A stretch of 62,928 nucleotides of DNA, the filler included, from Licmophora abbreviata (lineage: Eukaryota), in NCBI GenBank assembly GCA_900291995.1. It is 8 parts of 8 records of this genome, joined end to end, with 100 filler letters (N's around TTAATTAATTAA, not from the genome) between each part and the next. Parts side by side here need not be neighbours in the genome. Positions count along the whole stretch, not along the records: positions 34,669 to 57,188 come from OLMU01002020.1; 7 more parts are not named here. One strand, given 5' to 3'. How positions within the stretch are numbered: position 1 is the first letter of the stretch; each line of letters begins with the position of its first letter. The position numbers and the translations under genes are program-made. This document shows positions 46,242 to 48,672 of this stretch, piece after piece. Below the pieces are notes generated by a model. It was not told where the DNA came from and did no database searches. It worked only from the letters and a program-made list of their open reading frames with translations.

Positions 46242-47234
46242 CTAGCAACACAAGCAGCCACGGCCACTACTGGAGGCTACTTCAGGAAACGTGACACCGC
46301 ATAGGCGACGGGTGTCTTTCACCGCTGGAGCAGTTCCCGTAATTGCAGCCCTCCGTGGTAGGTCGTATGAGTCCGCAGCGCTCAAATCGACCTGGTATCC
46401 CAAGTCAATCAAACTCGCAATCGTCTGAGAATAGACAGGTTAGTGAGACGGGTCGACTCGCAGTCATACCAACAATGGCAATTGCACTTACCATTCGACT
46501 CATGGGCATGTCTGTGCGTTCGGCGAGGCCTGTCATGAGCTCTTCGTCAAAGACGGCTTCACGCCAATGTCCCTCACGAGTACCCGGACCACCCGTGTTG
46601 GCAACGGGAATGCGTTTGAGTCCAGACTCGCCCAACAGAGTCGCATACTCTTTCATGGCGTTTTCTCCCGTGAACTCTGGATTGTTGGTACCGGCACCCG
46701 CCAGGAGGCCCTTTGTCTTCCATAGTGTTCCAACTCCCAGCACGTGGCCCTGCAACAACAACAAGAAAGAGGTGCGAAACGCAGAATGAGATCCTTCACT
46801 CTGAAGCTGTACATCCAGCCTATAAATTACCACACCATTTCATGAAGAATCACATCGTCCAGGGTACCGTTGCGTTGCAAAGAGGCCAGATCGGCAGTGT
46901 CAAACTCCATGATCCCCGAATAGGGTATGCCGTTGGAAGGACGCACCGCCGTCGGTCCAGCTCGTCCCAGCACAGATCCAGTTCCGTCGATACGAATTCC
47001 CGATGCTTGAATCCTCAATCCCTCAATACGAGTACCATTCGGTAGATTGACCGGAGCGATGTTGTCCGCACGAATCACGCGCCCCCAACGGGCCGCCGCC
47101 GCAGTGAAGATCTTCTTTTGTTCTTCCGAAAGACCAGAGTACTCCAACTCAATCTTGAAGTCTCCGCTACCCGACGGAGTTTCCTCCTCTTGTCCTCCTG
47201 CTCCACCGCCCATTCCGATACAAAAGTTGCCCAT
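46242..47234 (-). CDS. Leishmanolysin-related (M8-like) zinc metallopeptidase; 3 exons, 279 aa
   Basis: Exons 47234-46836, 46749-46492, 46424-46242. VLGRAGP, HEM|GHVLG (HExxH), GHWRE, ELMTG (Met-turn), TIASLIDLGY. Starts MGNFC and ends GCLCC. Confidence 0.9.
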
Positions 47235-47839
47235 TGTCAGTCAATAGTGGCGTTGTGTAGCTTTGATGAGAAGCTTACTGTGATGCGCGTAGTTTGACTC
47301 GTGGTGGGGAAGTCTTGGAAAAGAAAAGAGACGACCGTCCCGTCGACGAGATGGCGCGCCAAACTTGAGCTTAGCGCGCTCAATTCCAAGCGGTCACCAC
47401 CCCGATGTTTTGTGGCTCGGATAAATAACACATTGATCATACCAGGTATGTCATACCAGGTAGCGAGGGGGAGTGCGCCGACCAGACGTTTCGAATCGTT
47501 CGAATCGTACCCATCGCGCTGACGGGCGGCGTCTGAAAAGGGAGCCTTGCTTCTAACCTTCTCAGCACAACCCAAAACACGACGCTGAAAGCAGACAATG
47601 AATGTTACAGTACCAGGTAGAGTGATTGAACTAGCTAATACTGATAAAAGAGTAGCTATCATAGGTACCCTGCAATCGCGAGTAGTTTGAGTTGTTTAAC
47701 TCGCTCTAGCTACTACTAGTAGTTTTGGCTCTGCAATATAATATGTAGTAGGAAACCATGTAACATGAGCATGTACGCCAGAGCGCCAGTACCGGAGGAG
47801 CTGTCGGCCCTTGGCTATCTGAGGATACCACTTCCTCTG

Positions 47840-48280
47840 CTACTTAGGTGGAGGCCCAATGCGACATCCACGCCTGTGGTTGCAGCTTGCGCATGCGAGT
47901 CGAAGATTCTCAGTCTTGTTGGACCCGCCCAATCCAAGAGGCAACATATGTTCGATCGTGAGGAGTTCGAAAGCAAACGCCTTGTGGCACCAATGACAAC
48001 ATGTACCGTACTGCCTCAAGAGCGTCCGTTTCTTGCTCGCTTTCTGTTTCGAGCCCATCCTACTGACACGCTTGGATCTTTTGTTGCAGTTGTCACCATA
48101 CGGAACAAGATCAGATGGCATCAATTGCCCCATCAAATGAGCAGAGAGCGCATCAAATTTTCCACGCACTTTACCCTTCCCACTGAACTCACCTCGCATA
48201 GTACGTGGCAGGGCCAATACTCGTTTCATCCAGTTCATGACGTGTGTTCTGTCTTGTGATCTCTCTGGATTCCGGGACAT
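47840..48280 (-). CDS. HNH endonuclease (McrA-like, Zn-binding), 146 aa
   Basis: CHWC…LTIEHMLPLGLGGSNKTENLRLACASCNHRRG. Basic N-terminus, no intron. Confidence 0.85.
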   Translation of the reverse strand: MSRNPERSQDRTHVMNWMKRVLALPRTMRGEFSGKGKVRGKFDALSAHLMGQLMPSDLVPYGDNCNKRSKRVSRMGSKQKASKKRTLLRQYGTCCHWCHKAFAFELLTIEHMLPLGLGGSNKTENLRLACASCNHRRGCRIGPPPK

Positions 48281-48672
48281 GGCGATACGAGCCGGCGTGT
48301 CTAGTTAAAACCGCTTCAACAAGGCCCATCCATAACTCGCGCAAGACTACGAGCACATCCAAGTCGCCGCCGGAAGCAGCCGACCACACCTCCCCACTTC
48401 CTCCATGACACTCCCCGGGTTTTGTTTTGCTGTACCATCTGACGATGTAACGATACACACTGTAACATTACGGTACGCCAGTCAAGACCAAGTGTCAAAT
48501 TTCAAACCAACGGCGTGGCATCCGTACCGCGCTTTGCGGACGCAGCACTGACTGTCGCGCCCACGGAAAAAGTTGTCGGTGATGTAGCGCGGCGGCGGCG
48601 CGGACCATGATATCAGCAGGATGTGACACATTCGTCGGTCTTCCATTTGAGACCTTCATCACTGTCGCCACC

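Follow-up and report, generated by a model that had tools for sequence, protein, structure and literature searches.

An HNH nuclease gene and a leishmanolysin-related peptidase gene in tandem in the diatom Licmophora abbreviata, probably acquired independently and adjacent by chance

Closest described systems

A bacterial gene pair that was transferred together into diatoms has been described. XPK and ACK lie next to each other in the nuclear genome of pennate diatoms, are adjacent in Proteobacteria and Cyanobacteria as well, and are conserved between diatoms (10.1101/2020.01.24.918219, in the part of the paper available to us). The same part gives a bacterial horizontal origin for 3-5% of diatom proteomes, from which our own arithmetic suggests that about 6-10% of such genes would directly neighbour another by chance. 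The HNH-peptidase pair analysed here is likewise adjacent in a nuclear genome but, unlike XPK-ACK as presented in that part, was adjacent in no prokaryotic locus examined. Literature on horizontal transfer of HNH endonucleases to diatoms, diatom leishmanolysin and Phaeodactylum HNH was searched, and none of the papers listed appeared to concern the HNH-peptidase pair. Leishmanolysin is listed among the enriched secreted proteins of Nitzschia putrida (PMC9054022, in the part available).

Stand-alone HNH proteins of cyanobacteria (ORFs of 78-118 residues; Nodularia, Microcoleus, Oxynema) are 41-56% identical to residues ~66-146 of the diatom HNH and share with it a basic N-terminal helix (SKQKxxKK...L..YG), the CxxC...H...N...CxxC-N pattern and a C-terminal PP. 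The diatom protein differs from them in 74 extra N-terminal residues, and its gene in host-like GC and in having no downstream RNase III. The best solved sequence match was the Gme HNH nicking endonuclease of Geobacter metallireducens (4h9d; E 1.4e-6, residues 92-138), which was also the best fold match (Foldseek E 5.6e-5, 30-34% identity); the Geobacter enzyme is a beta-beta-alpha-metal nuclease made of one small domain, and its alignment with the diatom protein is limited to the core. Likeness to the HNH domains of Cas9 and IscB is at the domain level (NCBIfam IscB 1.2e-7, Cas9d 1.3e-5; PDB 8d2k 2.6e-6), far under the family cut-offs (31 vs 175 bits for IscB and 24 vs 375 bits for Cas9d); RuvC, bridge helix and guide-RNA parts are absent, and the protein is not a member of either family. 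The first-pass annotation called the gene McrA-type, which holds in a loose sense, as a label carried by some relatives, where 'McrA' is a generic source name. It does not extend to the E. coli type: EcoKMcrA (6ghc) ranked 15 against the HNH model (E 0.023, rmsd 19.8), residues 1-74 have no detectable relatives and are predicted to fold poorly, and an N-terminal modified-cytosine-binding domain joined to the HNH was not recognised.

Leishmanolysin/GP63 (MEROPS M8, 1lml) has HExxH, a downstream His ligand and a Met-turn in common with the diatom peptidase, which is 42-52% identical to short bacterial leishmanolysin-related members. A profile of the peptidase relatives matched 1lml (E 1.1e-10), positions 85-234 aligning to 1lml residues 134-289, the catalytic region only. 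The diatom protein does not show the complete GP63 layout, with its signal peptide, three domains and membrane anchor; it has 279 residues against 478 in the 1lml chain. Two introns and a Cys-rich C-terminus set it apart from 1lml and the bacterial members.

The locus and the HNH gene

Features of the locus are collected in Table 1; the window is the whole 62.9-kb stretch of L. abbreviata DNA that was analysed. Sequence reading confirmed the arrangement first reported, an intronless HNH gene about 600 bp upstream of the peptidase on the same strand amid eukaryotic genes: the two genes lie in tandem on the minus strand, with 605 bp from the HNH stop to the peptidase ATG. The spacer presumably holds the 3' end of the HNH gene and the promoter and 5' UTR of the peptidase; its 141-codon ORF (47237-47662) has a coding score of 0.022, near zero, and matched no Pfam family. 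Flanking genes are eukaryotic (CAF1/PARN, RRP36, GCK domain, BCKDH kinase, VWA, NARG2), and the PARN gene has its closest named relatives in diatoms (Seminavis, Mayamaea, Pseudo-nitzschia, Thalassiosira). The relatives of both genes and these neighbours agree with the earlier view of two bacterial-type genes in ordinary eukaryotic surroundings. The GCK-domain gene is divergent from the HNH gene, whose start is ~330 bp away, and apart from the gene at 47840-48280 (154.7 bits) the window contains no HNH of this profile. Repeats flanking the pair were imperfect matches of 14-27 nt, and a mobile-element boundary was ruled out as these are no larger than chance; window GC and codon scores gave no GC break or compositional island at the pair.

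Table 1. Coordinates of the two genes, their parts and the spacer between them, as positions in the window.
Feature	Position	Strand	Description
HNH gene	47840..48280	-	Intronless ORF, 146 codons + TAG, ATG at 48280 (ORF listing, sequence)
HNH N-terminal extension	48059..48280	-	74 codons, no detectable relatives; lacking in bacterial relatives
HNH catalytic core	47843..48058	-	Residues 75-146; starts at internal Met, same point as small bacterial homologues
Spacer, HNH stop to peptidase ATG	47235..47839	-	605 bp (sequence)
Zinc peptidase gene	46242..47234	-	Three exons, 279 codons, leishmanolysin-related
Peptidase exon 1	46836..47234	-	133 codons, ATG at 47234, ends in HEM of zinc motif; coding score 0.25
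Peptidase intron 1	46750..46835	-	86 nt, GT..AG, phase 0, splits zinc motif between HEM and GH
Peptidase exon 2	46492..46749	-	86 codons: GHVLG, third zinc-ligand His (GHWRE), Met-turn (ELMTG)
Peptidase intron 2	46425..46491	-	67 nt, GT..AG, phase 0; junction between ...SRM and TIASL...
Peptidase exon 3	46242..46424	-	60 codons + TAG (46244-46242), Cys-rich tail

The HNH ATG is preceded by an in-frame stop 24 nt upstream (48305-48307). Residues 95-140 matched Pfam HNH_5 (PF14279; E 2.8e-11, 43.6 bits vs cut-off 27.5) and Pfam HNH (PF01844; E 1.5e-8, 35.1 bits vs cut-off 21.4). The protein keeps all eight columns that are invariant in a 45-sequence alignment (C95, C98, T108, H111, G119, N125, C133, N134), and C130, nearly invariant in the 13- and 45-sequence alignments, is kept; the catalytic His, the conserved Asn residues and the two Cys pairs expected to form the zinc site are thereby all accounted for. 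In the AlphaFold model the core is confidently folded (pLDDT 91-98 for residue blocks 71-146), with strands 107-111 and 126-130 and helix 131-137 giving the beta-beta-alpha-metal fold, and the top Foldseek matches (4h9d and Cas9 HNH domains) were all HNH nucleases. Judged from sequence and model, the gene is intact and its product is assigned to the HNH nuclease superfamily, with Pfam scores, residues and fold in agreement. The last 72 residues would make up a complete small beta-beta-alpha-metal nuclease of the cyanobacterial subfamily, and likeness to the Gme nicking endonuclease and to the Cas9/IscB HNH domains suggests that nicking or cutting of DNA, with a divalent metal, is its most likely activity.

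The N-terminal extension is basic (16 K/R vs 6 D/E) and has pLDDT values of 51-69, with one helix predicted at residues 11-22. Two of 13 aligned proteins (P0101 and P0112) extend into these 74 residues, in a weak alignment, and no orthologue with the extension was found in the 1.84-billion-protein, metagenome and viral scans or in the word-index search. A signal-peptide-like hydrophobic stretch is absent (15-residue Kyte-Doolittle maximum 0.75). The diatom would have added this basic, largely unstructured segment itself. It has no ER-type signal peptide and may serve to target the nuclease to the nucleus or the mitochondrion.

Codon log-ratios were +0.10 in the HNH frame and -0.15 in both other frames, and for the extension taken separately +0.097 in frame vs -0.25 and -0.33 off frame. 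GC is 0.507 and GC3 0.541, which is host-like; cyanobacterial HNH genes have 0.32-0.51. The in-frame score of 0.10 is lower than the 0.155-0.316 obtained for 12 reference ORFs in the window, as a silent relic of transferred DNA, open by chance and unexpressed or unused, might show. Such a relic is nevertheless unlikely, because the catalytic and zinc-binding residues are intact despite a fully host-like composition, from which we infer purifying selection over a long residence, and the 74 codons that precede the bacterial-type start form an open stretch whose codon score indicates coding in the gene's own frame and in neither of the others. The failure to find an extension-bearing orthologue anywhere also fits a relic; that an exact look-up of five start variants of the protein found none of them in a 15-billion-protein collection says little, since an adjacent ORF of the window is missing from it as well. 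Against disuse, more than 90% of diatom genes of horizontal origin are expressed, according to the available part of 10.1101/2020.01.24.918219.

Relatives of the HNH protein were sought in a full HMMER scan of 1.84 billion proteins. Matches were confined to residues ~66-146 (best 81.4 bits, 56% identity), and the word-index search at near lengths gave no match. Twenty top-match clusters were looked up, and the four that named an organism were all cyanobacterial. With 301 genomes sampled per phylum and a threshold of E<=1e-12, the subfamily was present in 21 of 301 Cyanobacteriota and in none of the 301 Bacteroidota, 301 Pseudomonadota or 301 Actinomycetota; by these sequence matches the subfamily is cyanobacterial among named organisms. 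The metagenome scan yielded nine loci, all distant and domain-only, none of which reaches residues 1-71, and the viral scan no close relative. In the HNH tree (58 rows, 82 columns) the window protein groups with two long branches at a support of 86/83, unstarred, and the tree lacks the resolution to name a donor.

The peptidase gene

The exon model was read from sequence, and its junctions fit the uninterrupted relatives P0001 and P0002, both of which are missing intron 1. Splicing restores the HEM-GH zinc motif, and the resulting protein agrees with the family alignment at all 50 of its invariant columns, H112, E113, H116, H175 and M186 among them (P0001 numbering). Exon 2 alone fell below the cut-off of Pfam Peptidase_M8 (PF01457; E 0.014, 14.6 bits), a threshold of 21 bits that P0001 and P0002 exceeded with 36.2 and 38.3 bits. 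On its motifs, and on a family match made through these relatives, the gene is judged intact and its product a leishmanolysin-related zinc metallopeptidase. The protein has no signal peptide, hydrophobic N-terminus or transmembrane segment. Its N-terminus (MGNFC...) does not fit the PROSITE-type N-myristoylation pattern, and no such modification is claimed. The Cys-rich C-terminus is common to the peptidase, P0001 and P0002 and is absent in the four bacterial relatives aligned. The product would be a 279-residue single-domain M8-like putative zinc metallopeptidase with HExxH, third His and Met-turn, whose Cys-rich tail may be lipidated.

A search for sequencing runs containing the locus listed no RNA run. 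Sequencing run X1 (15% of words) yielded three short contigs, each of which maps to the peptidase. The contig at 46721-46865 is unspliced through intron 1 and X1 contigs carry Nextera adapter tails, so the run looks like DNA; runs X2 and X3 gave no contigs at the locus.

Exon 1 had 58 relatives at E<=0.001, with P0001 as the best (63% identity); those with names are bacterial and labelled 'leishmanolysin-related zinc metalloendopeptidase'. The only firm clade in the peptidase tree (SH-aLRT 100) consists of the window protein, P0001 and P0002, the latter two from contigs of 1.2-3.9 kb that may be eukaryotic or bacterial. The sister group of this clade is poorly supported within a broad bacterial radiation, in which Saprospiraceae are nearest by path, and some of the top identities are cyanobacterial (Leptolyngbyaceae, 59% to P0001). 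Viral matches were limited to two giant-virus bins, 32% identical, and a further match of 36% over 51 residues; a viral origin of the peptidase was rejected on these identities of just 32-36%.

Linkage in prokaryotes and origin of the pair

The first-pass annotation had suggested, as a speculation, that the two genes form an island acquired together or a defence or cell-death module, with coincidental adjacency as the alternative, and had asked whether the bacterial or viral best relatives of both are neighbours. In 80 bacterial peptidase-homologue loci (1.25 Mb, flanks up to 10 kb) the HNH was absent throughout (best 9.5 bits vs 154.7 for the window control), and the peptidase had no conserved neighbour there, any neighbour family occurring in at most 8 of the 80. 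From the other side, 22 cyanobacterial HNH loci were inspected over ~1.5-2 kb each side, contig permitting; RNase III was the usual downstream neighbour (13 of 22), RNase III or a 231-residue ORF stood downstream, and a peptidase was found in none. A peptidase homologue occurred in one of the 21 HNH-bearing cyanobacterial genomes, on a different contig, and in the five genomes with the closest peptidases HNH matches were weak (<=37 bits) and on other contigs. The best relatives of the two genes are thus linked in no prokaryotic locus examined, and the adjacency expected of a co-transferred pair or operon remnant was seen in 0/80 peptidase and 0/22 HNH loci.

A single insertion of bacterial or viral DNA that brought both genes into a diatom chromosome would account for their tandem orientation 605 bp apart, for the bacterial type of both, and for the presence of cyanobacteria among the close relatives of each. 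It is very improbable given the linkage and co-occurrence counts above, the lack of close viral relatives for the HNH and the distance of the viral peptidase matches, and the absence of both boundary repeats and a compositional island. The proposal is weakened further by the relatives themselves, cyanobacterial for the HNH and nearest by path to Saprospiraceae for the peptidase, by the conserved neighbour of the HNH in cyanobacteria being RNase III, and by PADLOC matches that are domain-level only. Unrelated donors and lack of linkage in relatives had been named at the outset as evidence against the module; this is what was found, among prokaryotic relatives. As the deep placement of both proteins is weakly supported, a single cyanobacterial donor may still have supplied both genes.

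The reading we consider probable is that of two independently acquired, domesticated genes of different bacterial-type families that are adjacent by chance; coincidence, allowed for at the start, is judged the better account. The HNH and the peptidase would be separate diatom nuclear genes, each with its own history of acquisition and domestication, and the two spliceosomal introns of the peptidase would have been gained after transfer. Host-like GC of the HNH gene, the two GT-AG introns of the peptidase and the absence of repeats or a GC break suggest that both have been in the diatom genome for a long time. No functional link between them was seen.

Same-strand adjacency would also be expected if the host had assembled a functional pair, for instance for stress, defence or cell death, with selection holding the genes together. 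We regard this as quite improbable. The HNH gene lies close to the divergent GCK-domain gene and the peptidase has an upstream region of its own, which makes separate promoters likely; the bacterial peptidase has no conserved partner; and PADLOC returned generic HNH-domain matches to PtuB alone (best 26.4 bits, E 1.2e-6) and had no match to the peptidase family. Nor does the locus correspond to a known prokaryotic defence system such as Septu (PtuA/PtuB), as the neighbours of the HNH gene are the peptidase and the GCK-domain gene, with no ATPase. A more specific form is highly improbable: an HNH captured from a cyanobacterium, where its partner was RNase III, and given a new basic targeting extension, would act with a possibly lipid-anchored M8-like protease in stress- or infection-induced self-destruction or in organelle DNA turnover.

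If independent acquisition with chance adjacency is correct, the locus follows an ordinary pattern, in which a few percent of diatom genes are of bacterial type and some of them become neighbours by chance. It shows how linkage and co-occurrence in donor groups separate co-transferred pairs from coincidental ones. A minor point of note is that a stand-alone HNH of cyanobacterial type has stayed intact in a nuclear genome and carries an N-terminal extension that is new. As a separate observation, a literature search of titles and abstracts found no paper on the HNH-RNase III pairing of cyanobacteria, in which the small HNH gene regularly stands just upstream of RNase III.

Gene neighbourhood

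The HNH gene and the leishmanolysin-related zinc peptidase gene were found on the same strand, with the peptidase start 605 bp downstream of HNH. A stop codon was present in frame 24 nt upstream of the HNH ATG. The families identified in surrounding ORFs were eukaryotic (CAF1/PARN, RRP36, GCK, mitochondrial BCKDH kinase, VWA, M20, LRR and NARG2), and the nearest named relatives of the PARN-like flanking protein were from diatoms (36-44% identity). The first-pass annotation had placed this pair between eukaryotic genes; the ORF, domain, exon and flanking-gene evidence therefore bears out that observation, coordinates included.

Most of the gap between the two genes was occupied by a spacer ORF, which is probably not a gene because it had no Pfam family and a coding score near zero (0.022). 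On the other side, approximately 330 bp separated the HNH ATG from the divergent first ATG of a GCK-domain ORF. This arrangement may indicate a bidirectional promoter common to HNH and the GCK-domain ORF, instead of one shared with the peptidase.

Features of the window and of the compared loci
Feature	Sequence	Position	Strand	Detail
HNH ORF	window	47840-48280	minus	ATG at 48280, TAG at 47842-47840; 146 codons
Peptidase gene	window	46242-47234	minus	start 47234; exons 47234-46836, 46749-46492, 46424-46245, then TAG; read directly from sequence
Peptidase N-terminus	window	47220-47234	minus	Met-Gly, then Cys close by
Peptidase Cys-rich C-terminus	window	46245-46320	minus	
Differences in peptidase intron 1	window	46803, 46808		G>A, T>A in contig of sequencing run X1
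Spacer ORF	window	47237-47662	minus	141 codons
HNH-GCK interval	window	48281-48606		
First ATG of GCK-domain ORF	window	48607	plus	
HNH-RNase III	L103	711-1710		cyanobacterial locus
HNH-RNase III	L104	1555-2551		cyanobacterial locus
HNH-RNase III	L117	2028-2898		cyanobacterial locus
HNH-231-residue ORF	L110	2-1383		cyanobacterial locus
HNH-231-residue ORF	L111	1837-3218		cyanobacterial locus
Leishmanolysin-like domain	L090	10001-10465		giant-virus metagenome bin
Leishmanolysin-like domain	L091	2846-3310		giant-virus metagenome bin

Structure and ancestry of the peptidase gene

The peptidase gene contained two GT..AG introns of 86 and 67 nt, both in phase 0. Splicing joined HEM to GHVLG and thereby restored the HExxH zinc site. 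Both junctions fell in continuous sequence of the closest relatives, P0001 and P0002, which derive from contigs of 1.2-3.9 kb and passed the Pfam M8 cut-off. The spliced protein of 279 residues kept 50/50 invariant columns in an alignment of 13 relatives, and the family profile matched leishmanolysin (1lml).

Exon 1 alone retrieved 58 relatives at E ≤ 0.001; those with names were all bacterial and labelled ‘leishmanolysin-related zinc metalloendopeptidase’. The best 80 of 371 relatives confirmed by genome scan came from Bacteroidota, Cyanobacteriota, Actinomycetota, Planctomycetota, Pseudomonadota and others, with 44-59% identity to P0001. A tree built from 136 catalytic domains placed the window peptidase in one clade with P0001 and P0002 (SH-aLRT 100), within the bacterial radiation; the nearest rows by path were Saprospiraceae, with deeper placement not fixed.

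No signal peptide or transmembrane stretch was found in the window peptidase. Its Cys-rich C-terminus was common to P0001 and P0002 and missing in four bacterial sequences compared. Judged from sequence, this tail is a possible lipidation site, and together with the Met-Gly...Cys start it may provide lipid anchoring for an otherwise signal-less protease. The X1 contigs, which covered only the peptidase, carried Nextera adapter tails and retained intron 1, and were therefore taken as DNA representing either a closely related strain or an allele; apart from the two intron differences, the contig in which these occurred was identical to the window in the covered parts.

The HNH gene and its cyanobacterial relatives

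Pfam HNH_5 (E = 2.8e-11) and HNH (1.5e-8) matched residues 95-140 above curated cut-offs, and no second such domain was present in the window. When 1.84 billion representatives were scanned exhaustively with HMMER, 7965 matches had E ≤ 0.001 and 60 of them E ≤ 1e-10; no match reached E ≤ 1e-30 (top match 81.4 bits, 56% identity). Among the 150 matches listed, nearly all spanned only about residues 66-146, and most of the matched proteins were 70-120 residues long. Small relatives began exactly at the internal Met at residue 75; the diatom protein therefore consists of a complete small HNH and, ahead of it, a 74-residue N-terminal extension that has no relatives.

The core was predicted with high confidence (pLDDT 91-98). 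Among solved structures the Gme HNH nicking endonuclease (4h9d) matched it best, and Cas9 HNH domains ranked next. Matches in NCBIfam (IscB, Cas9d), PHROGs (26 HNH families) and PADLOC (PtuB) were at domain level only, with scores far under the family cut-offs. The extension was basic (16 K/R, 6 D/E), had no signal-peptide-like hydrophobic stretch, and was predicted at low confidence with a single helix (residues 11-22). It was open, with a codon score that was coding in frame only (+0.097 versus -0.25 and -0.33); that HNH is a silent relic is unlikely. GC (0.507) and GC3 (0.541) resembled those of the window's genes (cyanobacterial counterparts, GC 0.32-0.51), and this composition fits long residence in the host.

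Matches at E ≤ 1e-12 occurred in 21/301 sampled cyanobacterial genomes and in none of 301 each of Bacteroidota, Pseudomonadota and Actinomycetota. The best cyanobacterial match (80.5 bits) equalled the best global match in quality. Four of 20 top-hit clusters looked up carried an organism name, all cyanobacterial (Nodularia, Microcoleus, Oxynema and a cyanobacterial MAG). Because a tree of 82 alignable columns did not fix the window branch, HNH is classed here as ‘cyanobacterial-type’, with no donor named.

The closest cyanobacterial relatives were ORFs of 78-118 residues at 22 loci. An RNase III gene (Ribonucleas_3_3 and dsrm) lay downstream on the same strand at 62-199 bp in 11 loci and at about 1.4 kb in two more. 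HNH-rnc looks like a conserved pair in cyanobacteria; a literature search, judged by title and abstract, returned no paper on it. In five loci (L110, L111, L114, L119, L124) the downstream gene was a conserved 231-residue ORF without Pfam family, followed by DUF1822 in L110 and L111, the two loci whose next ORF was scanned with Pfam. Neither gene was found in the remaining four, and the window held no RNase III.

Linkage of the two genes

An HNH subfamily profile was run over 1.25 Mb of bacterial sequence, comprising the 80 peptidase loci with up to 10 kb on either side. No locus matched at E ≤ 1e-3; with filters off the best score was 9.5 bits, versus 154.7 bits for the window control. No conserved peptidase neighbour emerged (commonest family, 8/80). 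HNH matches in the five genomes with the closest peptidases were weak (≤37 bits) and on contigs without the peptidase, and reached at most 33.8 bits in five more peptidase-bearing genomes. A peptidase homologue was present in one of the 21 cyanobacterial genomes with a close HNH, inside a 902-residue ORF on a different contig, and none of the 22 cyanobacterial HNH loci contained a peptidase. As far as prokaryotes are concerned, the donors appear unrelated and the genes are unlinked in relatives, the pattern named beforehand as contradicting a module. The foreign ancestry proposed for each gene is supported, by the cyanobacterial-type HNH and the bacterial placement of the peptidase clade; the proposed co-acquired or functional module is not.

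Genes of bacterial horizontal origin are stated to make up 3-5% of diatom proteomes, to be expressed in >90% of cases and to gain introns after integration (10.1101/2020.01.24.918219). By our own arithmetic, at this density roughly 6-10% of such genes would have another as direct neighbour by chance. The same source gives XPK-ACK as a case of genuine co-transfer; in contrast to HNH-peptidase, this pair is adjacent in bacteria too. Given the missing prokaryotic linkage, the apparently separate donors, this chance rate and the XPK-ACK contrast, the pair probably represents two independent, domesticated genes. Same-strand adjacency would also be expected of an island acquired as one piece, which is highly improbable; neither repeats at the pair boundaries nor a compositional break around the pair was found. 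A functional pair assembled in the host, likewise compatible with adjacency, is very unlikely.

As to whether bacterial or viral relatives of the two genes are neighbours, they were not in the prokaryotic loci examined, and viral relatives were not close: HNH had no close viral relative, and viral matches to the peptidase reached just 32-36% identity. Two giant-virus metagenome bins contained leishmanolysin-like peptidase domains, distant from the diatom gene at 32% identity.
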